The translations under genes and the position numbers were made by a program. Positions 1 through 10,694 of a DNA stretch of 10,694 nucleotides are shown here, piece by piece. Numbering within the stretch: position 1 is the stretch's first letter; each line of letters begins with the position of its first letter. Source of the DNA: a virus (Duplodnaviria; Heunggongvirae; Uroviricota; Caudoviricetes); IMG/VR virus record IMGVR_UViG_2711768038_000002. One strand, given 5' to 3'. The notes below the pieces were generated by a model. The model made no database searches. It was given only the letters and a program-made list of their open reading frames with translations, and was not told the origin of the DNA.

Positions 1-1158
1 ATGCTCACCGTTAAGCAGATTGAAGCAGCAAAGTCGAAAGAAAAACCATACCGCCTTCTCGATGGTAATGGCCTGTACCTTTATGTCCCTGTATCCGGGA
101 AAAAGGTATGGCAGCTTCGCTACAAGATTGACGGTAAGGAAAAAATACTGACCGTAGGAAAATATCCGCTTATGACTTTGCAGGAGGCAAGGGATAAAGC
201 ATGGACTGCGAGGAAAGACATCTCGGTTGGCATCGATCCGGTAAAGGCGAAAAAGGCTTCGTCTAACAACAATTCATTTAGTGCGATTTACAAGGAATGG
301 TACGAGCACAAGAAGCAAGTCTGGTCAGTAGGCTATGCAACTGAACTTGCCAAAATGTTTGATGACGACATTTTACCCATCATCGGAGGTCTTGAGATTC
401 AGGATATTGAGCCGATGCAACTGCTGGAAGTAATCCGCAGATTTGAAGATCGCGGTGCAATGGAGCGAGCCAACAAAGCCCGCAGAAGATGCGGCGAGGT
501 TTTTCGTTACGCTATTGTCACCGGAAGGGCTAAATATAACCCGGCACCTGACCTTGCAGACGCCATGAAGGGATACCGCAAGAAGAACTTCCCGTTTCTT
601 CCTGCAGACCAGATCCCTGCATTCAACAAAGCACTGGCAACATTTTCAGGAAGTATCGTATCGCTCATTGCGACCAAAGTTTTACGCTACACTGCCCTAA
701 GAACGAAAGAGCTTCGTTCCATGCTATGGAAGAACGTCGATTTTGAAAACAGGATTATCACCATCGACGCCAGTGTGATGAAGGGACGCAAAATTCATGT
801 GGTCCCGATGTCAGACCAGGTGGTTGAACTTCTCACTACGCTAAGCTCAATCACCAAACCAGTATCAGAGTTTGTTTTTGCCGGGCGCAACGATAAGAAG
901 AAGCCAATCTGCGAGAACGCGGTATTGCTTGTGATCAAACAAATCGGCTATGAGGGTCTGGAAAGCGGTCACGGATTCAGGCATGAATTCAGCACGATTA
1001 TGAACGAGCACGAATGGCCCGCTGATGCTATTGAAGTGCAACTGGCACATGCCAACGGCGGTTCTGTGCGTGGAATTTACAACCATGCTCAGTATCTCGA
1101 CAAACGCAGAGAAATGATGCAGTGGTGGGCAGACTGGCTTGATGGGAAGGTTGATTAA
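1..1158 (+). CDS. intS: Tyrosine recombinase / P4-family prophage integrase (IntS-like, argW-targeting type)
   Basis: Uninterrupted 385-aa ORF starting at position 1, stop TAA 1156-1158. C-terminal tyrosine-recombinase signatures are visible (HGFRHEF box with HxxR; GIYNH with the catalytic Tyr candidate). The N-terminus MLTVKQIEAAK...YRLLDGNGLYLYV matches the P4-like integrase arm-binding region. Length and sequence match my recollection of E. coli CPS-53/KplE1 IntS; not verified by search. Confidence 0.9.
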   Translation: MLTVKQIEAAKSKEKPYRLLDGNGLYLYVPVSGKKVWQLRYKIDGKEKILTVGKYPLMTLQEARDKAWTARKDISVGIDPVKAKKASSNNNSFSAIYKEWYEHKKQVWSVGYATELAKMFDDDILPIIGGLEIQDIEPMQLLEVIRRFEDRGAMERANKARRRCGEVFRYAIVTGRAKYNPAPDLADAMKGYRKKNFPFLPADQIPAFNKALATFSGSIVSLIATKVLRYTALRTKELRSMLWKNVDFENRIITIDASVMKGRKIHVVPMSDQVVELLTTLSSITKPVSEFVFAGRNDKKKPICENAVLLVIKQIGYEGLESGHGFRHEFSTIMNEHEWPADAIEVQLAHANGGSVRGIYNHAQYLDKRREMMQWWADWLDGKVD

Positions 1159-1349
1159 AGAACAATAACAGCGCGTTGCAGCAATTACAGGAAACATCTT
1201 GTTACATACTTGGTTTTATGTCACTAACAAACTAGAGAAATTATGCATGAATAGACATATCGATCGTTATTTTTGTTGGTGATATACTTAACTGAATTTT
1301 ATGCACAACCATGTTGCGAATTTACCACATCATTACAAGGCAAACGGAA

Positions 1350-1667
1350 ATGAATAAGGATAAATGCTTAAATATAATTATATTAATAATCATTATAACA
1401 ATAATTGTTATTTCTTTTTATCCTATGTCATCAAGCTCAAAAGGGCATGATACGCAAAGTATTTCAGGTGACAACTTTAAATTAAGATCTTCTTTCTCAA
1501 GAGAATATTCATCATGCATATCAAACCTCAAAATGATAGCGCTAGACTTTGCTGGTCATAACATAGATTTCAACAGCCATAGCCAGTTCATAGCTTCAAG
1601 TGGCGAGGAAAAAATATTAGTAAAATGCACAAAAGATAATAAGTTACTATACATGCAAAATAAATGA
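1350..1667 (+). CDS. Hypothetical small membrane-anchored protein (moron), 105 aa
   Basis: ATG at 1350 with a weak GGA-type RBS; an in-frame ATG at 1311 has no RBS. The N-terminus has a single hydrophobic segment (LNIIILIIIITIIVISFY) followed by a hydrophilic Ser-rich domain. The gene is very AT-rich and is followed immediately by a strong hairpin terminator. No recognisable family. Confidence 0.4.
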   Translation: MNKDKCLNIIILIIIITIIVISFYPMSSSSKGHDTQSISGDNFKLRSSFSREYSSCISNLKMIALDFAGHNIDFNSHSQFIASSGEEKILVKCTKDNKLLYMQNK

Positions 1668-1673
1668 GAATTT

Positions 1674-1700
1674 CCGCACGCTTATCGCGTGCGGTTTTTT
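1674..1700. terminator. Rho-independent terminator between convergent genes (canonical for + strand, weaker for - strand)
   Basis: Perfect 8-bp stem CCGCACGC / GCGTGCGG (1674-1681 and 1687-1694) with loop TTATC, followed on + by TTTTTTATTTTTT. It sits between the stop of the small + ORF (1667) and the stop of the - strand membrane-protein gene (1699-1701). Confidence 0.65.
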
Positions 1701-3066
1701 ATTTTTTAGGTAATATATAGTATATTACCTTATATGAAAAATAGACAAATGATACAGTTATTATATTTTTCAAGAAAATAAATAAAAAGAATTCAAGACT
1801 CTCCCTTGCCATAAAAAATGAAAAAGGCATTGTCATAAGTGCAGCTATTTGTAATACACCAACTCTCCTCATCAATATGATTTTATCAAGAAATCTAAAA
1901 ACAACGCCTGAGATAACATATGAGCACCAGAAAAAATACTTTCCGAAAATAACAAGCGATGACCCAAGCAAAGTTGATGCCATATTCAATCCATTGCTAA
2001 GACCAAGAGCACTCACGGTAAAGTAATATGAGCTATTCATTGTGACAATTGGTTTGTCAGACCATATGAATCTTGGGATAAACCCTGAAAATTGAGTAAA
2101 GAAATAATAAATACCACCAACATTGCGATCATTGCTAAAGTATTTAACAGCTATACTCTGATAATTGATAGGAGATACGCTATCAGCTAAATATCTGACT
2201 ATAATGCCAAAAAGAGAGCCAGACGCTGAAATATCAACATCTGAGTATCTCACTATAGCCATTACACCAATTAGAATTAAGCACACAGAGCCTATGCATA
2301 TTAATTTCAACATGCCAATTAAGCCTCTAGAGTGGCAAATAAGAGCAACAATAAACATTGCCGAAAACATTACATTTCTTGAGCCACCAATAAGTACGTA
2401 ATATGCCATCCCAAATAACAATGACATTATAATTGATTTAACGAATACATACTTATCGTCAGATGTAATTGCATACACTATAACAGCAGAAACAAAAGAT
2501 GACATTATCATTATAATGACACCACTACCAGCATTCCCGCCAAGCTTTAAAGCATAATCATCAGAATTAAAAGATATGCCGTTTATGGCATAAAAAGCCA
2601 TCATCCCAACAAAACTTAAAAACAACGTTGTTCTTACAAATAATTTTGGGCTACCAATAAAATATTTATCAGAAAAAGTTATTTTATTTCTTCCTGCCGC
2701 TGTATGAGAGAATACATAAAACAAAACTATACCAATAAACGACAACGTAGACACATCATTTATATATTGATACGGCATATATTCTGCAGAACTAACTTTT
2801 GCCCCAACTCTAAACGGAAGCGATATATACCCAAAAAAATGAGTAAAAACGAGGAATAACATCCCAACAGATTTGAATGACACGCCATGTTTTTTGAATG
2901 ACACGGCACTTAGATATATTAATATTATGGCATACAACGCAGGTAGCACATAAGTAAAAAATGATTCATAAATATTCATAATATTGTATGTAAAAATGAC
3001 TATTTTTACCCGATCTTTAAAGAAAGTACAGGATGATAGCGCGTTTCTACGCGCCATCATAGTCAC
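1699..3066 (-). CDS. Polytopic inner-membrane protein, putative O-antigen modification enzyme (Wzy-like polymerase candidate); lysogenic-conversion position
   Basis: 455-aa ORF with at least 10 long hydrophobic segments and a roughly 60-aa loop rich in Arg and aromatic residues between TM blocks. Very AT-rich compared with neighbours (by eye). The start ATG (3066-3064) overlaps the tailspike stop TGA (3065-3063) as ATGA; alternative in-frame starts lie near 2979. It occupies the position immediately downstream of the tailspike where P22-like phages carry oac or gtr conversion genes. The family call is inference only. Confidence 0.6.
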
Positions 3067-5246
3067 CTTACAACAAATTTGCCATTGCTAATGTCGTTAA
3101 CTAGTGTTGCCACTATGTTAGCAACATCCTTCGTAGATAGGGTGTTTACGTCTCCACCGCGTAACGCACCGGAATTGGTAAATGGATACTGCTGAGGTTG
3201 TGAGCTATTGGCAAACTGGTTGTTAGCCTCATAACGTTTTGTTGGTACAGGGTTGTACCCAATACTGCCTGTGGTTGTGTCAGGAGCCACGCAGTTCGTA
3301 ATGTTCACTATAGCGGCAGAACCACTACCATTTGTATATATTGGCCTGTTAACTGTCCCGAATGGTTGCACAGCTACCAGTCTGTTAACAATAACACTAT
3401 GTGTGGCTAGTGCCTGTAAATAAGATTCTGCGCTCCCGTTGCACCCCCTCAAGTTCACATTATCAACCTCTATGTGGCGGCAGTTAATGGTGACGATATA
3501 ATGACCATTTTCTGTGTTAGGGTAAGCGCCTACTATGCGAACATTTTTTAATGTTAAATCTGTGGTTGGCACCGCAGCAGGCCCACCGTTGAAAACAAAC
3601 CCTTTTGCACCATTTGCAAGTGCGTGTATCGTAATGCCGTCAAACTCGATGTCGGCAAGATTAGTCGTGGTATTGGCTGAGTTTGCCAAAAAATAAACAG
3701 CCTCAGCAGAGCAACCTGATATCAAGAAGTTAGAAAAACGCATCCTTGTGTTTTCTACCGGATAGAAGCGGCATAACAAACCCTGCGAGCAGTTACGAAT
3801 AACAACGTTATCATAGGATACGTCACTAGCTCCTTCAATTGCGACACCTGCATTCGAACTTTCTACATATAGTCCAGTAACTACTCCATTACGGAAATTC
3901 CCACGAAGCCCGTGGCTTTCACAGTTTTTGATTGTGGCGGCGTTTATGTTAACTCTTGTAATAGCTGTCCCTTCCCCGCTTCCGTTCACAAGGTCGTCTG
4001 ATTGAACACGCAAACCGTTACCGCCAGAGGTATTAATGCTCACATCGTGAATCATAAGATTAAGAGTACGGTTTGGCCGGTGTGATGAGAAGAACAAAGA
4101 TGAGGCCCAAGTGTTTCTGCAACGGATATGATGGACGTGCGCCTCTGTAGGGTCATTGACAATGATCGCCATGCCAGTGCGGTTGCTGCCATCTGGATCT
4201 TGAATTTTCCCACGACCACAATCATGTGAGTACAGATTATCGGCAAGAACCCATCTCCCATAATCCATCGTTACGTTGCTATTCCATGCCCCCTGCAATT
4301 CACACCCTGAAAGCTCAAGTGTACCTGCAGATTGCATGGCCAAACCAACCCCTGGGTCAAATGAAGCATTCTGCCGATAAAAATCAAACAAGAAATTACC
4401 GACAATGCGTATATCATATGGAGTATAGTCAAACTCTTGATTTGATTCGTTCCATGTCCGTGGGGATCTGAGCCATAATTGTCTGGAATCTACCGTCACT
4501 TTTGGCAATAACGGCTTTATGAGGATGTCTCCCTGAATATTAAATATACCTTCTACAGTTACGGGAGAGTAAGCGATCCCGATATTTCCAGATAGTGGAA
4601 GTAGTCTACTAAGTTGAGCGTCATTTTGTGCAATTTTCCAACCAGAATTAACCTCATTAAAAAATGATATTGGGTAAAGTTCAATATTATCATTAATTAC
4701 AGTTGAGTCATAACTGGTAATTGTCAATGGTGATGATAATGGTGTGCTCATCATCATAAGGGCGCCATCAAGCCTAACGAATCTTACACCTTCGGGAATT
4801 AAGTCTCCTATTTTTGCATCAATTCCAATTTTATTAGGATAAACCTCACCACCTAAAAATCCATTCATTCCTCGAAGCCAAGATAGATTTAACATGACTG
4901 ATAACTGATCTGGATCGTACTTCAGCACATTAGGGAAATAGAACTGCTGTGATCCATATGCATCGTACACAGCCATAGAATGCCCTTGTACAGTAACGAA
5001 CTTAGCAATCTGTCCGTTATATACAGGGTAGCCAGCAGCGTTAATAATTATTGGTTGCGAAACGGGAATGTGAGAGCCGTCTTCGTTCTCCACATAAACC
5101 TGAATTTGGTTTTCAGGATTTACCGGGTCCGTGTCAATTTTACCGATATAAATTTTGCCATTGGCTACGGCTTTAAAAGAACGAGCCATAGTGAAGAGTT
5201 GCGAAGGCATACTCACTACAACATTGGCATTTATTGAATCTGTCAT
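3063..5246 (-). CDS. P22-family tailspike protein (conserved N-terminal head-binding domain plus divergent beta-helix receptor-binding/depolymerase domain)
   Basis: 727-aa uninterrupted ORF with GGAG 8 nt upstream of ATG 5246-5244. The first ~110 aa ([59 protein letters not shown]...[17 protein letters not shown]...NVLKYDPDQ) match the P22 gp9 / Sf6 / HK620 tailspike head-binding domain as I recall it. The remainder shows repetitive N/G/V-rich beta-helix-like segments. Confidence 0.9.
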
Positions 5247-5304
5247 TTAATTTGCTCCAGATGCAAGGAATCGCCGCAGCATGGCTACGGTGAATTTTGG
5301 GCAT

Positions 5305-5327
5305 AAAAAAACCCAGCCGAAGCTGGG
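5305..5327 (-). terminator. Rho-independent terminator acting on - strand transcripts, upstream of the tailspike gene
   Basis: Stem CCCAGC (5312-5317) / GCTGGG (5322-5327), loop CGAA, flanked on + by a 7-A run (5305-5311), which is a U-tract on the - strand immediately after the hairpin. Confidence 0.55.
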
Positions 5328-5379
5328 TCGTTGCGTTGGTTATCTGTCAGTAGTTATGCACTGGCTGAAGGATTTGTAC

Positions 5380-5409
5380 AAAAAACCACCTGACGGTGGG
5401 TTAATTTTT
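5380..5409 (-). terminator. Second hairpin terminator candidate (mainly - strand; weak on +)
   Basis: Stem CCACC (5386-5390) / GGTGG (5395-5399), loop TGAC, with a 6-A run upstream on + (U-tract on -) and TTAATTTTT downstream on +. Confidence 0.45.
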
Positions 5410-5427
5410 GCATTTACCTGGGCCATA

Positions 5428-5456
5428 TTGACTACTTATAAAATGAGATCAATATT
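5428..5456 (+). promoter_or_regulatory. Candidate sigma70-like promoter for the small basic protein gene
   Basis: TTGACT at 5428-5433, a 17-nt spacer, then AATATT at 5451-5456, about 35 nt upstream of ATG 5493. Pattern match by eye only. Confidence 0.25.
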
Positions 5457-5492
5457 TAATCGCCCAATAACGGGTGTATGTTGAGGTATATC

Positions 5493-5672
5493 ATGGCGAA
5501 AAAACCAGGTGAAAACACAGGAAAAAACGGCGGAATATACCAAGAAGTTGGCCCACGCGGCGGTAAGAAAGACAATTTTGCCACCGTCAAGGACAACGAA
5601 AGGCTTCCACCAACAACAAAGCCAGGTCATGGCTGGGTATTGGATAAGCGAACTCCAGACAGCAAAAAGTAA
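5493..5672 (+). CDS. Hypothetical small basic Lys/Gly-rich protein, 59 aa
   Basis: ATG 5493 is preceded by GAGG (5483-5486) at 6-nt spacing; the upstream in-frame ATG at 5478 lacks an RBS. Stop TAA 5670-5672 is followed by a hairpin terminator. No family recognised. Confidence 0.45.
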   Translation: MAKKPGENTGKNGGIYQEVGPRGGKKDNFATVKDNERLPPTTKPGHGWVLDKRTPDSKK

Positions 5673-5678
5673 TAATCA

Positions 5679-5700
5679 AGCCGGTTCACTCCGGCTTTTT
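5679..5700. terminator. Hairpin terminator shared by the convergent small-protein (+) and zincin-like (-) genes
   Basis: Stem AGCCGG (5679-5684) / CCGGCT (5691-5696), loop TTCACT, followed on + by TTTTT. The stop codon of the - strand gene (5686-5688) lies in the loop. Confidence 0.5.
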
Positions 5701-6051
5701 GATATGTCGCTCGCAGAACTCAACAAGCCTGCTCATTAAGTAGCAGTAAGTCTCGTTGGCTCTTCCTGGTTCAACATCAACACCTACCCTTGAGCAGATA
5801 TCGAATGCCATGTGAGCGCACTCATGGGCAATAGTAGATAGTTTGCCATTGAACACGCCTATCACATGCAAAACACCATTCTCGCTACTCATTGTATGAG
5901 ACGCTCCGTTGGCGTCCGAGTCATGCACGTCAACGCCAAGTTTTTGATGCAGGCGTTGCCATTCTGGAAAGTCTCTACAAAACACAATTGTACCGCTCTC
6001 AAAGAGCGGAACGAGCATCTTTGGTACGTTTCCAATGTTAACTTTTTTCAT
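5686..6051 (-). CDS. Putative zincin-like metallopeptidase (HEXXH motif; ImmA/IrrE- or SprT-like), 121 aa
   Basis: ATG 6051-6049 with AGGA 4 nt upstream. The protein contains AHECAHMAFD (H-E-x-x-H zinc-binding motif) preceded by a LGVDV...NGKLSTIAHE arrangement resembling ImmA/IrrE-family peptidases. The family call is from motif recall, not search. Confidence 0.55.
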   Translation of the reverse strand: MKKVNIGNVPKMLVPLFESGTIVFCRDFPEWQRLHQKLGVDVHDSDANGASHTMSSENGVLHVIGVFNGKLSTIAHECAHMAFDICSRVGVDVEPGRANETYCYLMSRLVEFCERHIKKPE

Positions 6052-6085
6052 GGTATCCTGCGCAAAACTAAGGAGAGTTAATTAT

Positions 6086-6571
6086 ATGAAAAAATCACTG
6101 TTAATTATCCCGCTTCTGCTGGCTGGGTGCGCAAAAGTAAGCGACTATCAGGCAAGTTGCGAGCAACGCTATCCAAAGCTTAGCGATATGGCTAATTGCC
6201 TTGATGCCAGCTTGAAGAACGACTCTCGCATGGCATCAGCACCAACACCTAAGCTTTATGTCCTTGCTGCGAAGATGCTCGGGCAAGGTGTCGATGAAGG
6301 CAAGATAAGTGACACACAGGCAAGACTTGAACTTCAGAATCTTTATGTTCAATTACAAAGCCAAGAACAAGCACAACAAATAGCACAAAGCCAAGCATTC
6401 CAGCAGGCTTTATTGAATTATCAGGCTGTAAACACAATGCAAGCGATCGAGCAAAAAGCGCGCCAGCCTGTTATAACTCAACCTTACCCAACACGCGTTG
6501 ACACATATACAAACTGCAATTCAGGATTTGGAAACACGGTAACATGCAACAGTAGCAGTAATATAAGATAG
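6086..6571 (+). CDS. Lipoprotein (signal peptide with lipobox LLAG-C), Gln-rich central region; candidate superinfection-exclusion or moron product
   Basis: ATG 6086 is preceded by AGGAGAG (6071-6077). The N-terminus MKKSLLIIPLLLAGCAK is a classical lipoprotein signal peptide with lipobox. The mature part has a Gln/Ala-rich, probably helical segment and several Cys. The ORF-track start at 6035 lacks an RBS and would bury the signal peptide. Confidence 0.7.
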   Translation: MKKSLLIIPLLLAGCAKVSDYQASCEQRYPKLSDMANCLDASLKNDSRMASAPTPKLYVLAAKMLGQGVDEGKISDTQARLELQNLYVQLQSQEQAQQIAQSQAFQQALLNYQAVNTMQAIEQKARQPVITQPYPTRVDTYTNCNSGFGNTVTCNSSSNIR

Positions 6572-6584
6572 TTATATCTTATTT

Positions 6585-8432
6585 TTATTGCTGTTCTGCT
6601 GTAATTTGGCTTGAAAGTATAGGGCGTATCGCATTTGCAGCATTATTTAGCGCTCTTTCATAGGCTGGTGTTCCTGCTTTGGTGTTTGCCAAACGTAAGA
6701 GAGCATTCCTTGCTGCTTTTGACTCATACAAGCGCATCATTGCACCGAAACCAGCCTCAAGCCCCATTGATACGCCAAGAGTCGCAGTTGCGCCAATCGT
6801 CCTTATCCTGTTGGCTTGCGATTGCCCCGTCTGAGTTACTACATTTGCGGTGTCTGACCTTGCTGTTTGCTGTAGAACTTCATGAAGAGAATCAAGCTCT
6901 TTCATGTGCTTTCCAGAAAAAATAGTGTTGTAAATTTCACCGCCTGACTGAGATTTCAGCTTATTAACTTCAGTGATGAACTTGGCTGGAGAGTCACCGG
7001 CCTTTTCCGCTATTTTGCTGACGTAAGCTGCACGCATAGCATCTTTCCCTTTATCATCCAATGCGCTCCAGATTCGTTTCACGTCAGATGGTTTTCTGCT
7101 TAATACAACGGTATTTATAAGTTCAGGACTGGCTTCACTGCTTGCCTTGTTGAGCTTGTTAGCAATGTTTTTATTAAGCACCTTATTATAAACGTTTGCA
7201 TAATCGGAATTTGCTTTAAGGTATTTTGCTGCGTCTGATGCACCGAGGTTTTTAGCAACTGCGTTACGAAGGTCTTTTGACATTGCATTCTCTACCATAT
7301 TGGTAGCTGCTTTTGCCTGGTTGGGGAAGACCATAGCATCTCCCTGAACATTAGATCTAAATGCTGTTCTGTGCTGACGCAAGAGATCAAACGTAACATC
7401 CAAATCAGTTGCAGGGTTAGCTAATTCTTCACGTAGGTTACGCAAGGATGTAAGCAGGCTTTGATTGGCTGAAGTCCCAAGCCGTTCCTGTCTTGCGATC
7501 GCTGCATTCAGAGCATTCATGGTATTTGTGGTATCAACTGCGGCATTACCCATTTTATTGGTGACGTCATTGATAACAGCGCCAGCAGCATCCTTCCGCC
7601 CCCTTAACGTGGTGGTCAGAGATTTCACCACATCATCAGGGTTGTACTCACCAAAACGGTCAAAATAATTGCTTACCAGCTTACTACGCGTTGCATATTG
7701 CTCCGCTCGCTTTAAGCCTGTCCCGAGCAAAGCCCCCTCGGCATCCTGAGTAAGGCCGCGAGTGAAAGCATTTTTCGGCGGGATAACATCAGATGTCATT
7801 GGTGTCACGCCCATCGATTCTGATGTGGCAATTTTCTTCGCCACTTCTGGCGCAATATCACCTTTTATAGCCGTTATTCCACGCCCTATTCCCTTTGCTG
7901 CTGCGGAAAGAACCCCCTGAGCGGCAAGGTTAACTCCGGCATTTTTGGCTGCATTTTGTGCGAAATCGCCTTTCTGATTTGCGGCCTCTGCCAGTGATCC
8001 AATAGCCATGCTTCCTGCCGTTCCAACGCCTGGAACTAAATACCCGCCAATTGTTTCACCGGCTTGCGCGTAAGGGTCGGTCGGTCGATCTACTGGACGA
8101 TAGACATCGTCCAAAACCTTGGGGCCACCAAGCCCCTGGCTGATTGCATTAATCAGACTTGCGCCACCCTGCAATACGTCAAATGGTATGTTTACCAGAC
8201 CACGACCAGCCTGCTCTGCAATTTGCCCTGCACTTTGCCCGCCTGTGAGCCAATCGCCAGCTTGTTGCATCAATGATGGTTCTTCACGTGCTGGTTCATT
8301 ATTGGCCTGATTAACTGTTTGTTGCTGAACAGCCTGACCAGCAAAATACTCATCAATGGCGGTGCCAATATCTTCCGTGCTCGTACCATCAGGGAAGGTA
8401 AATGTCTTACCGTTTGCAGTTACTTTCATCAT
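6585..8432 (-). CDS. P22 gp16-like ejection (DNA-transfer) protein
   Basis: 615-aa ORF. The N-terminus [33 protein letters not shown] matches my recollection of P22 gp16, and the size is close to P22 gp16 (about 609 aa). Start ATG 8432-8430 overlaps the stop TGA 8431-8429 of the upstream gp20-like gene as ATGA. Confidence 0.85.
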
Positions 8433-9896
8433 TCCACCGTAAATTGAATTCCTGATTTTGAGGTATATGATCCGGATTGACTCTGCTGCTGTTGGGTATT
8501 TGCCGGTTGTTGGCTATTGCTCTGTTGTTGACTATTTGCAGCACTTGAAACCACCAAAGCATCATAAACGCGACCAGACTGACCACGTAATGAGTTATAT
8601 TGGCCCTGCATTTTTCGCATTTTTGTTTCAGTAGCAGCCTTGGAATCACCGGGCTGAGGCAGGTACATTTTGGAATACTCCTGCATCTCTGGCAGAGTAA
8701 TTGCTGCACCTGTTTCTGGGCGCAAAATTGCATACAAGGCGTCTCTCGCATTTACCATATATTGCTGCTCCGCTGGTGATAGGCTTAAATTTGCAATAGT
8801 CCCATCACCAAGAGAGCGATTTATTAATGCAACTCGCTTAGGGTCAATGCTTTTACTAAGCTGATTCATTGAGTCCATTGAATCTTTTAATCGCAAAGCA
8901 AATCCTGCCGCCTTCTTGGAACCCTCATTAGCCTTATCTATGATGCTTTGCGCTTGTGGCAAGCTAATTGGTTTAATGCCATCACCAGATATAGGTTGGT
9001 TTAGTTTTCCGGCTTCCTCGCTGCCATCGGTGTAATACTTAGTTACCGAGCCATCAGGATTGGTTTCAACCTTAAGTAATTTCTTAGCATTGGGATTAAT
9101 TCCCGCCGCTGCCGCAAATGCCGCTGCACCATTTGGATCCGCCTTTAACATTTGCGCGTACTGATTGTAATTCTGCATTGCAGCTGTTGGTGCATATGCT
9201 GACGTTAACGCATTTGCTCGGCTAATATCCTGCCCTCTCGCCTGAAGCGCCTCGCCAGCCTGATTGCTGCGAATCGTCTCTGCCAACTCGCCACGCTCAA
9301 TATCCCGACCAGCCATCTTGTCCTGAACATTGAAGTAATCAATCGGACCAAGAGCAGCCATTCCAAGGTGATCAACAAACTCACCAAATCCTGAAGGGTT
9401 CTGCTGATACATCTGAGCAACGCTGTTAGGGTCAACACCGACGCGAGTCAGTTCCTTGGCGTTGTTTTGCAGCCATGATTGCATTGCTTCTGGAGACGAT
9501 GACGCAAGGCGTGCGCCAGCCGCTAAGGTGCCGATAGAATTACGCTGGTCTTCATCAATGAATCCCATGCCTTTACGAACGGATTCAATCTGGTCTGGAT
9601 ATTGAGTAGCCAACTGACGCAAAGCACCGCGATCACCAGACGCATAAGCATTAGCGTACGCCTGCTGAAATTCTTTCTGCCGCTGAGCCTGCTTTTCCTG
9701 CTGAACCCCCCCCCGCAATACCTGAAAGGCCTTGCAAAGCAGTCAGCCCAACATTGTTAGCGCCTGAACGCTCAATATCATTGTTCTGCCTGATAAGCTG
9801 AAGCGTATTGCCGATGTCATTTACGCTCGGAGCGTTTGAGTTGACGCCGCCGATACCAGCCAACAATCCGCCGTTTGTTCCTTGCCAAGTAGCCAT
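8429..9896 (-). pseudogene. P22 gp20-like ejection protein gene interrupted by a frameshift in a homopolymeric tract
   Basis: Two overlapping - strand ORFs in different frames: 9896-9651 ([10 protein letters not shown]..., 81 aa, ATG with a GGGG RBS) and 9718-8429 (429 aa, opening on a TTG codon). They meet at a run of 9 C on + (9706-9714), which is 9 G on the coding strand. Removing one G gives a continuous reading ...[13 protein letters not shown]... of about 489 aa, comparable to P22 gp20. Confidence 0.75.
9706..9714. repeat. Homopolymeric C9 tract (G9 on the - coding strand) at the gp20-like frameshift site
   Basis: Direct count in the sequence: ctgaa ccccccccc gcaata. Confidence 0.9.
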
Positions 9897-9905
9897 GATT
9901 ACCCC

Positions 9906-10184
9906 TTAAAACAACGAGCCAAGCAATCCGATACCAGCACCAATGCCAGCGCCCCAAGGCGTTGATGTTCCCAAAAGGCTGGCAAGACCTGCACCGGCAA
10001 TCGCACCAGACGTGCCGCCGCTAATTGCAGTCTGAAGACTTGATGGTTTATTGGCATTTGCAGCGGCAAGAGCTGCGCTTTGCTGTGCAATGCTGCTCAT
10101 GTTGTTGGCGTACGTCTGCCCGGCGTTTGCCTGACCTTGCAGAGCACCAAGCCCAACGTTTGCCAGATTGTTGTAATTGCTCAT
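9906..10184 (-). CDS. Small Ala/Gly/Asn-rich protein with C-terminal Gly-rich hydrophobic segment; positional equivalent of ejection protein gp7 (possibly 5'-truncated)
   Basis: ATG 10184-10182 (the ORF track extends to a GTG at 10208). Stop TAA 9908-9906 lies 9 nt before the gp20-like start and overlaps its RBS. At 92 aa it is much shorter than P22 gp7 as I recall it (about 229 aa). An in-frame stop lies at 10226-10224, and upstream of it the late operon is absent. Confidence 0.5.
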   Translation of the reverse strand: MSNYNNLANVGLGALQGQANAGQTYANNMSSIAQQSAALAAANANKPSSLQTAISGGTSGAIAGAGLASLLGTSTPWGAGIGAGIGLLGSLF

Positions 10185-10268
10185 CTGGTTTGATAACAAT
10201 CCTCGCACTCGCGGGGATTTCTTTTATCTGAACTCGCTACGGCGGGTTTTGTTTTATGGAGATGATAA

Positions 10269-10436
10269 ATGCACTTCCGAGTCACAGGTGAATGGAATGG
10301 AGAGCCATTTGACAGGGTTATCGAAGCAGAGGACATCAACGACTGCTATAACCACTGGATGATATGGGCGCAGATAGCACATGCAGACGTAACCAATATT
10401 CGAATTGAAGAACTGAAAGAACACCAAGCCGCCTGA
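10269..10436 (+). CDS. Hypothetical small protein, 55 aa
   Basis: ATG 10269 with GGAG (10258-10261) upstream; sequence MHFRVTGEWNGEPFDRVIEAEDINDCYNHWMIWAQIAHADVTNIRIEELKEHQAA. The stop TGA 10434-10436 sits in the loop of a strong terminator hairpin. It falls below the ORF-track size cut-off and has no recognised family. Confidence 0.4.
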   Translation: MHFRVTGEWNGEPFDRVIEAEDINDCYNHWMIWAQIAHADVTNIRIEELKEHQAA

Positions 10437-10448
10437 TGGCGGTTTTTT
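10429..10448 (+). terminator. Rho-independent terminator
   Basis: Stem CCGCC (10429-10433) / GGCGG (10438-10442), loop TGAT, followed by TTTTTT (10443-10448). Confidence 0.65.
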
Positions 10449-10458
10449 ATTACCTGAT

Positions 10459-10474
10459 TTGCAGGTTCGATTCC
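10459..10474 (+). other. 16-nt segment identical to the T-arm region of tRNA-Arg (argW): candidate att core or recombination scar
   Basis: TTGCAGGTTCGATTCC matches tRNA-Arg(CCU) ...AATTGCAGGTTCGATTCCTGCAGGGGACACCA, with the tRNA sequence recalled from memory. Identity stops on both sides; the 3' T-stem strand and acceptor end are absent, so this is not a tRNA gene. It lies between the terminator and the excisionase gene. Confidence 0.5.
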
Positions 10475-10493
10475 CTATTCGGAGATAGCACTC

Positions 10494-10694
10494 ATGCAAC
10501 ACGAACTACAACCTGATTCACTGGTTGATTTGAAATTCATCATGGCTGATACTGGCTTCGGTAAAACCTTCATCTATGACCGGATTAAGTCCGGCGACCT
10601 GCCAAAAGCCAAAGTTATCCACGGTCGAGCAAGATGGTTATATCGTGACCATTGTGAATTCAAAAATAAGCTCTTAAGCCGCGCCAATGGGTAA
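10494..10694 (+). CDS. torI: Excisionase / recombination directionality factor, AlpA-family winged-helix (TorI-like)
   Basis: 66-aa ORF with GGAGA (10481-10485) upstream of ATG 10494 and stop TAA at 10692-10694. The central FIMADTGFGKTFIYDRIKSGDLPKAKVIHGRARWLYRD fits the AlpA/Xis DNA-binding pattern. Length and sequence match my recollection of KplE1 TorI; not verified. Confidence 0.8.
   Translation: MQHELQPDSLVDLKFIMADTGFGKTFIYDRIKSGDLPKAKVIHGRARWLYRDHCEFKNKLLSRANG

Follow-up and report, generated by a model that had tools for sequence, protein, structure and literature searches.

A mosaic interval between the tailspike gene and gene 16 of a P22-like prophage, with a candidate exclusion lipoprotein gene in the position of sieA

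The window analysed in this study is a stretch of 10,694 nucleotides from the IMG/VR virus record IMGVR_UViG_2711768038_000002, and its subject is the interval between the tailspike gene (the gene 9 homologue) and gene 16, which encodes an ejection/DNA-transfer protein. It is fairly probable, in our judgement, that this interval is a mosaic of three parts: the scar of a deleted immI region, a backbone gene pair (hkcC and orf59a) shared with phages P22 and HK620, and a lipoprotein gene, possibly with a role in exclusion, that occupies the slot held by sieA in P22. This reading is based on the identity of the DNA to that of P22 and HK620, which ends at sharp breakpoints, on the presence of an intact hkcC in P22, and on the distribution of the three genes in complete Escherichia coli genomes.

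Three intact open reading frames (ORFs) are situated in the interval, encoding proteins of 59 (+ strand), 121 (− strand) and 161 (+ strand) amino acids. These are orf59a, also known as hkcD (5493-5672), hkcC (5686-6051) and the lipoprotein gene (6086-6571), respectively. As read from the sequence, 34 bp (6052-6085) separate the start codon of hkcC from that of the lipoprotein gene, and 13 bp (5673-5685) lie between the ends of orf59a and hkcC, counted from stop codon to stop codon. The distance between stop codons is again 13 bp for the lipoprotein gene and the convergent gene 16. A terminator scan revealed hairpins at 5310-5329, 5386-5399 and 5678-5697; in all, six terminator-like sites were found, as compared with the 1.4 ± 1.4 expected from shuffled sequences. 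The hairpin at 5678-5697 is a bidirectional terminator common to orf59a and hkcC, designated tORF59A in HK620 and 'mnt terminator' in P22. An AT-rich inverted repeat at 6560-6585 (11-nt arms, 91% complementary), where the lipoprotein gene and gene 16 face each other stop codon to stop codon, is possibly a weak terminator. All three ORFs are genuine coding genes under purifying selection. In comparisons with diverged homologues, the proportion of differing synonymous sites (pS) was 0.72-0.98, indicating saturation, and that of differing non-synonymous sites (pN) was 0.11-0.41; for the lipoprotein gene and its copy in E. coli O104:H4, the ratio of non-synonymous to synonymous substitution rates (dN/dS) was 0.07.

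A first-pass annotation of this DNA had described the same three genes and three hairpins, and these were confirmed at the positions stated. The spacings of 34 and 13 bp that it gave are exact, and the hairpin that it assigned to two genes jointly is that at 5678-5697. The flanking genes are as it named them, i.e. the tailspike gene (3063-5246, − strand; Pfam Head_binding, E = 4e-65) and gene 16 (6585-8432, − strand; phrog_770, E = 6.6e-279), and the interval is, as it recognized, the place between genes 16 and 9 that serves as a moron hotspot in P22-like genomes. Its descriptions of the three products as a lipoprotein, a zincin-like protein and a small basic protein were likewise borne out by the data presented in the following sections.

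Megablast searches against phage genomes showed that positions 5247-6079 of the window are 97.8% identical to HK620, and that positions 5364-6079 are 97.9% identical to P22 13834-14549. The first of the sequences next to the tailspike gene (5247-5363, approximately 117 bp, − strand) aligns with the terminal 3′ parts of ant genes annotated in numerous E. coli prophages. It contains the hairpin at 5310-5329, which is followed by a run of T residues on the − strand and corresponds to tANT in HK620. The sequence adjoining it (5364-5399) is a remnant of the 3′-end of mnt, as homology to P22 starts in the last 30 bp or so of that gene; it includes the hairpin at 5386-5399, which is tMNT in HK620. 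Of the immI module (mnt-arc-ant), only about 117 bp from the 3′-end of ant and about 30 bp from the 3′-end of mnt are left, and the region was deleted exactly as in HK620, whose sequence record labels two terminators, one 'associated with remnant of P22 ant gene' and the other 'remnant of P22 mnt gene'. A tblastn search with Mnt gave no match in the equivalent loci bearing the same deletion scar. The homology to the 3′-ends of ant genes and the remnant annotation in HK620 identify the hairpins at 5310-5329 and 5386-5399 as scars of the immI deletion, and not as elements that insulate the interval from the tailspike gene, as the first-pass annotation had supposed.

Contrary to a further proposal of that annotation, the content of the interval is not unrelated to P22. 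The basic protein is 98% identical to P22 Orf59a and to HK620 HkcD. The HECAH protein is HkcC, and P22 contains an intact ORF of 121 aa for it (BK000583, 13861-14226, complementary strand), which is 99% identical to that of the window, with one substitution. This hkcC ORF is not annotated in the reference P22 records, and the annotated sieA promoter falls inside its 5′-end. The lipoprotein alone is foreign to P22.

It is apparent also that, contrary to what had been suggested, the three genes are not carried as one block. Among 5,426 complete E. coli genomes, the lipoprotein gene was found in 182-186 and hkcC together with orf59a in 113-132, with all three adjacent in 18; only about 10-16% of the carriers of one part also have the other. 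Elsewhere, the lipoprotein gene adjoins gene 16, in convergent orientation and without hkcC and orf59a, at amino acid identities of 60-98%. Such loci are present in E. coli O104:H4 (gene order ant-arc-mnt-hypothetical-lipoprotein-16), in strain 2012C-4606 (mnt-lipoprotein-16), in Serratia marcescens (83% identity) and in Morganella (60% identity), where the lipoprotein gene is the sole gene between the tailspike gene and gene 16. Beside hkcC and orf59a, 11 other cargo genes can take the place of the lipoprotein gene, and the two genes are also present inside tail operons of siphoviruses. The earlier observation is confirmed, and its interpretation is supported in part: a part in superinfection exclusion may reasonably be guessed for the lipoprotein, but not as the task of a three-gene module. 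The interval is not a novel three-gene island; its layout is HK620-like and consists of ORFs already known from the P22 family, with a different cargo gene in the sieA slot. A PADLOC scan (PADLOC-DB v2, E ≤ 0.1) returned no defence-model match for any of the three proteins.

The sieA slot and the predicted lipoprotein

A promoter region equivalent to PsieA, mapped from the P22 annotation, is situated at 6022-6052 (+ strand), partly within the 5′-end of hkcC. It is followed at 6070-6075 (+ strand) by a Shine-Dalgarno sequence, AAGGAG, that is common to the window, P22 and HK620. Alignment of these three sequences revealed near-identity through PsieA to AAAACTAAGGAG. From there on the divergence is complete, and it sets in a few bases short of the respective start codons (lipoprotein gene, sieA and hkcB). 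A single copy of sieA with 85 bp of upstream sequence is sufficient for exclusion (PMC10883804), and the 85-bp stretch that lies upstream of sieA is conserved in the window.

The occupancy of this slot was determined in 80 IMG/VR contigs containing hkcC, a sample that is biased toward close relatives of the window HkcC. A divergent cargo ORF that starts 25-34 nt from the hkcC start codon was found in every one of the 80 contigs, and these ORFs represent 12 unrelated families; despite the bias of the sample, the pattern is a clear one. The lipoprotein described here is the commonest occupant in the sample (18 contigs). It is followed by SieA (13 contigs), a 129-aa secreted protein (12), HkcB (8) and a 75-aa protein with two transmembrane (TM) segments (8), while seven rarer families together account for the other 21. 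The position behind PsieA and the Shine-Dalgarno sequence, which is that of sieA, is thus open to at least 12 cargo genes without mutual relationship, and the lipoprotein gene is one of these. SieA is the only cargo family with a known function. A signal peptide, lipobox or membrane anchor is present at the N-terminus in all but one of the 12 families, corresponding to 79 of the 80 contigs, and for this reason the lipoprotein is best read as a candidate exclusion protein.

The lipoprotein gene (6086-6571, + strand) encodes a member of phrog_6067 (E = 2.9e-109), a family of unknown function. The N-terminus of the protein reads MKKSLLIIPLLLAGC, with the ATG at 6086 and the codon for Cys15 at 6128-6130. 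It consists of a signal peptide and a lipobox, LAGC, at residues 12-15 (MKKSLLIIPLLLAG directly followed by Cys15), in agreement with the pattern [LVI][ASTVI][GAS]C, so that lipidation is predicted. No TM helices were identified apart from the single N-terminal signal peptide. G14 and C15 are invariant in 25 homologues, 51-87% identical, from at least 11 genera of Enterobacterales. By the Lol-avoidance rule in E. coli, lipoproteins that lack Asp at position +2 are sorted to the outer membrane. That position is Ala in 23 of the 25 homologues, Val in two and Asp in none, and sorting of the lipoprotein to the outer membrane is predicted accordingly. Cysteines C25, C38 and C154 are also invariant, and the window copy has a fourth, ten residues past C154, that completes a second pair; these pairs would be consistent with periplasmic disulfides. 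A search of the PDB with a profile of the lipoprotein yielded chance-level matches only.

The position and orientation of the gene, its promoter and the export signals of its product suggest that the lipoprotein is most plausibly an outer-membrane candidate exclusion protein, i.e. a functional analogue, but not a homologue, of SieA. Expression would be from the prophage; after lipidation at Cys15 the protein would reach the outer membrane, on whose periplasmic face it would disturb the delivery of DNA by superinfecting P22-like phages. Two routes may be envisaged. The lipoprotein could mask a secondary receptor in the outer membrane, or it could upset the assembly of the trans-envelope conduit formed by gp7, gp20 and gp16. 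The possibility that the lipoprotein is tied to one type of gp16 was considered and rejected, as it is found with at least four different gp16 types. There are precedents for exclusion functions at this location: SieA, which is carried by 22 of 66 P22-like phages, blocks DNA delivery through an action on gp16 and gp20 (PMC10883804), and the same interval of phage BTP1 specifies an antisense RNA that confers superinfection immunity (PMC7067206).

HkcC, Orf59a and their pairing

The product of hkcC (5686-6051, − strand, in the sense of the late operon) is the counterpart of HK620 HkcC, belongs to phrog_1365 (E = 1.7e-39) and is a candidate mini-gluzincin. Gluzincins are characterized by an HExxH motif and a downstream Glu, the third zinc ligand, some 18-25 residues further on in the next helix. 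In HkcC, the motif is HECAH (encoded at 5812-5826), and the codons for N99 and E100 are at 5752-5757. H76, E77 and H80 are invariant in 19 close and 42 diverse relatives of the protein. In the diverse set, whose members are 25-43% identical, the only invariant residues are G49, H76, E77, H80 and E100. In the set of 19 close relatives, N99 hardly varies. An AlphaFold2 model of HkcC (predicted local distance difference test, pLDDT, 89.3; predicted template modelling score, pTM, 0.83) shows the order strand-strand-helix-strand-strand-helix(HExxH)-helix(NE), with the last helix starting at N99-E100. The invariant E100 stands at the beginning of the modelled helix 100-116, as would be expected of a third ligand.

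Foldseek comparisons of the model with viral models (BFVD) yielded many uncharacterized phage proteins, and among the neighbours a few were labelled SprT-like (two) or metalloprotease. Sub-threshold matches to the SprT-like family of Pfam (PF10263) were obtained for 7 of the 42 diverse relatives, with a best E value of 0.014; the window HkcC itself gave no match to PF10263, and PDB profile searches with HkcC found nothing. HkcC shares with zincins of the SprT-like kind the HExxH helix, the next helix with its invariant Glu, the core of a β-sheet plus helices seen in the model, and these recurrent weak matches. The protein does not qualify for any curated family. Taken together, the motif, its conservation and the model indicate that HkcC is very probably a small cytoplasmic zinc metallopeptidase, most likely of the zincin/SprT-like kind, and its predicted activity is that of a peptidase. 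The orientation of hkcC suggests that the protein would be made late in lytic growth.

A HMMER search of 1.84 billion representative proteins identified 514 HkcC clusters at E ≤ 1e-3. Of the 150 matches listed, nearly all are stand-alone proteins with lengths of 60-190 aa, mostly 110-140 aa. A scan of genome contigs for HkcC yielded only three loci, and a literature search for 'hkcC' returned unrelated acronyms only.

Orf59a (5493-5672, + strand, i.e. in the prophage orientation of mnt) is a basic protein, with 13 Lys/Arg and 7 Asp/Glu residues, and is assigned to phrog_3202 (E = 7e-31). It matches positions 8-54 of the 55 in the Pfam YjzC profile (PF14168) with 19.4 bits (E = 1.3e-3), under the gathering score of 25. 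The match was repeated in two diverged Orf59a homologues (E values from 1e-3 to 5e-3), which is suggestive of a kinship that is distant at most. As the YjzC family is itself without a known function, the match is mechanistically uninformative. PDB sequence searches with Orf59a gave chance-level matches only; a literature search for 'YjzC' yielded nothing useful, and one for 'orf59a' found a single passing mention, in the paper on SieA (PMC10883804). In P22, orf59a is read together with mnt, which suggests that Orf59a would be made in the lysogen. A sigma-70-like site (TTGACT-17-AATATT; 5428-5456, + strand), which P22 also has, precedes orf59a by 37 nt. It was the only promoter-like site in the scan, and could serve as an own promoter for orf59a after the loss of Pmnt, although a single match is within the chance expectation of 2.5.

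The hkcC and orf59a genes are convergent on the one bidirectional terminator between them, and constitute a conserved part of the P22/HK620 backbone. An adjacent hkcC is present at all 80 orf59a loci retrieved, while orf59a is present at 70 of the 80 hkcC loci and missing from 10. The orientation of hkcC is always that of the late operon. A convergent pair of homologues was also found in siphovirus-type prophages of Klebsiella oxytoca and Rosenbergiella, with tail-tube/chaperone genes on one side and the tape-measure gene on the other. A Xenorhabdus locus keeps the convergent pair as well, and in metagenomic contigs the arrangement is retained at identities of 41-44% for HkcC and 53-61% for Orf59a. 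A functional coupling of the two would be plausible: Orf59a could, for example, restrain HkcC or be processed by it, or transcription of one gene could disturb the other. A type II toxin-antitoxin pair was considered and rejected. The genes are convergent and not co-transcribed, hkcC lacks orf59a in the 10 contigs just mentioned, and distant HkcC relatives are always alone.

Other accessory genes were observed near the pair. In two metagenomic contigs (L097, 1330-1968; L098, 1229-1867), a diverged pair (41% and 61% identity) adjoins an unrelated metallopeptidase gene (PF18894, PhageMetallopep). In siphovirus prophages and contigs (L011, 10241-11854; L100, 3135-3612), a SNIPE/T5orf172 nuclease-like gene beside Arc-family genes, and a ParE toxin pair, were found in the vicinity. 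The pair evidently sits in moron-rich neighbourhoods.

Weighing the alternatives

Several observations weigh against the mosaic reading and the exclusion role that it includes. PsieA is called 'putative' in the literature, and the promoter scan of the region did not recover it. Among the 12 cargo families there is one whose protein is soluble. The lipoprotein has no homology to known exclusion proteins; it gave no match in Pfam, NCBIfam or PADLOC, and PHROGs returned phrog_6067 only. HkcC relatives of 34% identity or less stand alone, without Orf59a, and are co-directional with terminase/packaging or head-tail genes, so that the pairing is not general to the HkcC family. Finally, the prophage in the window is defective, and late-operon expression of hkcC is unlikely here, given a truncated gene 7, a frameshifted gene 20 and the loss of the early region (described below).

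A bolder reading extends the mosaic one. It holds that the 30-nt junction behind PsieA is a cassette-exchange site, with each envelope protein a distinct exclusion factor directed against the gp7/gp20/gp16 conduit or against entry at the outer membrane, and, separately from this, that HkcC and Orf59a make up a mobile protease-plus-partner module that moves between the late operons of podoviruses and siphoviruses. This is put forward tentatively, as a possibility with the odds against it. If it were true, the lipoprotein would be without a demonstrated precedent among outer-membrane lipoproteins in its exclusion of short-tailed phages.

Slightly more doubtful is the proposal that HkcC and Orf59a form a two-component switch, in which Orf59a made in the lysogen inhibits late HkcC or is cleaved by it, or in which the convergent transcript silences hkcC; with a similar degree of doubt, such a pair might have a part in the choice between lysis and lysogeny, in anti-defence or in abortive infection. 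The retention of the convergent pair at the low identities given above and across phage morphotypes is consistent with a switch, as are the asymmetric dependence (orf59a with hkcC at all 80 loci, hkcC at times without orf59a) and the opposite transcriptional programmes of the genes, as judged by their orientation to the late operon and to mnt. Direct evidence of an interaction is absent, however, the solitary relatives of HkcC beside packaging or head-tail genes do not fit, and the adjacency of the genes could reflect a mere recombination unit that carries their shared bidirectional terminator.

It is less probable again, and in our view unlikely, that the lipoprotein is a host-fitness or virulence moron comparable to lambda Bor or TraT, with a role for instance in serum resistance, adhesion or envelope stress, and not an exclusion factor. 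A prophage-expressed lipoprotein of the outer-membrane type, kept intact in a degraded prophage, carried by pathogenic lineages such as O104:H4 and ST131 and without homology to known exclusion proteins, might have such a role. Against this, its position is strictly bound, across genera, to the ejection-protein gene and the sieA slot, the sole characterized occupant of that slot is an exclusion protein (PMC10883804), and neither Pfam nor PHROGs revealed similarity to Bor or TraT.

There is very little probability that the prophage-sense transcript through the lipoprotein gene works chiefly in antisense to the 3′-end of gene 16, with the protein of secondary importance. The two genes do converge, their stop codons being 13 bp apart with nothing but an AT-rich hairpin in between, and STnc6030 of BTP1 provides a precedent (PMC7067206), but the protein is under strong purifying selection (dN/dS of 0.07; the amino acid sequence is conserved although synonymous sites are saturated), its lipobox and cysteines are invariant, and the same lipoprotein is found beside several unrelated gp16 types. 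Least probable of all, and largely refuted by gene distribution, is the cooperation of the three proteins as one exclusion, anti-repressor or anti-phage module: the tight packing, the divergent starts 34 bp apart, the shared terminator and the occurrence of the same arrangement in 18 of the E. coli genomes and in 18 of the 80 phage contigs are outweighed by the presence of the lipoprotein gene without the other two in E. coli O104:H4, 2012C-4606, Serratia and Morganella, by the association of hkcC and orf59a with 11 other cargo genes, with siphovirus tail operons and, in P22, with sieA, by the low co-carriage and by the negative PADLOC scan.

Prophage context and comparison with known systems

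The gene order in the window is integrase (1-1158, + strand), a WzyE-family polymerase gene (1699-3066, − strand), the tailspike gene, the interval, gene 16, gene 20 and a piece of gene 7. By its appearance, the whole window (1-10694) is a defective prophage of about 10.7 kb, of the KplE1/CPS-53 type, situated at tRNA-Arg (argW) and bounded by intS (1-1158) and the excisionase gene torI (10494-10694); its content is P22-like tail-end genes and not that found in K-12. The gp16 of the window is 74% identical to that of P22. The virion genes are decaying: gene 7 (9906-10208) is truncated, retaining residues 135-230 of 230, with homology to other prophages ending at 10197, and gene 20 is in two frames (residues 1-59 and 68-491), with a break near 9700-9726 that represents a frameshift or a sequencing error. 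The early region and the late activator are missing. Such a defect need not prevent expression of the genes in prophage sense, namely the lipoprotein gene, orf59a and wzy. Two ORFs lie between int and the tailspike gene. The wzy gene encodes an O-antigen polymerase of the WzyE family (Pfam E = 1.6e-17), and the other ORF (1311-1667, + strand) specifies a 118-aa protein with a hydrophobic N-terminal stretch and no family match. These two are probably a serotype-conversion module, like the 'O-antigen modification protein' of HK620.

The findings are of moderate interest in two respects, one being the lipoprotein as a candidate non-homologous analogue of SieA, in a slot that exchanges at least 12 envelope proteins, and the other the conserved pair of a mini-zincin and Orf59a, found in P22 itself. 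If other occupants of the slot are also exclusion factors, then the slot is a ready panel of natural probes, which could show how the ejection-protein conduit passes across the outer membrane and periplasm. It would also, if this is true, predict host range for phage therapy in E. coli and Salmonella lysogens; the carriers of the lipoprotein gene (about 185 of the 5,426 complete E. coli genomes) include O104:H4 and ST131 strains. The 514 representative clusters of the HkcC family, all unannotated, make it a widespread candidate for an uncharacterized phage metallopeptidase, and, as the family is present in P22 itself, it is directly testable in the best genetic system available.

The closest known relative of the interval is that of HK620 (AF335538; hkcB, hkcC, hkcD). 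The two have in common the immI scar, hkcD/orf59a, the bidirectional terminator and hkcC, with the 97.8% identity noted above over 5247-6079. They differ in that the slot of HK620 contains hkcB, which encodes a protein of 109 aa with an N-terminal membrane anchor and a coiled coil, and the sequences diverge straight after the Shine-Dalgarno sequence. The sieA-orf59a-mnt region of P22 shares orf59a, the terminator, the intact hkcC and the PsieA region with the window, again at the 97.9% identity given above. In contrast to the window, P22 has kept mnt-arc-ant, and its slot contains sieA, encoding an inner-membrane protein with four TM segments.

As compared with SieA (Leavitt et al. 2024, PMC10883804), the lipoprotein has the same slot, orientation and upstream region, a predicted location in the envelope, and adjacency to gene 16, the product of which is a target of SieA. 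SieA (types A-C), however, is a polytopic inner-membrane protein of 4-5 TM segments with an FxRYPxEAxxFNK motif, whereas the window protein is a predicted outer-membrane lipoprotein with no likeness to it in sequence or topology. The motif is absent from the lipoprotein, and tblastn with P22 SieA found nothing in the lipoprotein-bearing loci. The lipoprotein thus resembles a member of the SieA group by position, 34 nt from hkcC and behind PsieA, and departs from it in topology, motif and homology.

A second comparison is with lipoproteins that act in exclusion elsewhere. Llp of phage T5, Cor of phi80 and N15, and Ltp of the Streptococcus phage TP-J34 are lipoproteins, expressed early or from a prophage, that act at the envelope to prevent the entry of DNA. 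The likeness proposed here is one of function only, as no homology to the window lipoprotein is detectable (PHROGs returned phrog_6067 alone). Llp, Cor and Ltp target siphoviruses, through FhuA or the tape-measure protein, whereas the window lipoprotein would target the delivery of podovirus ejection proteins.

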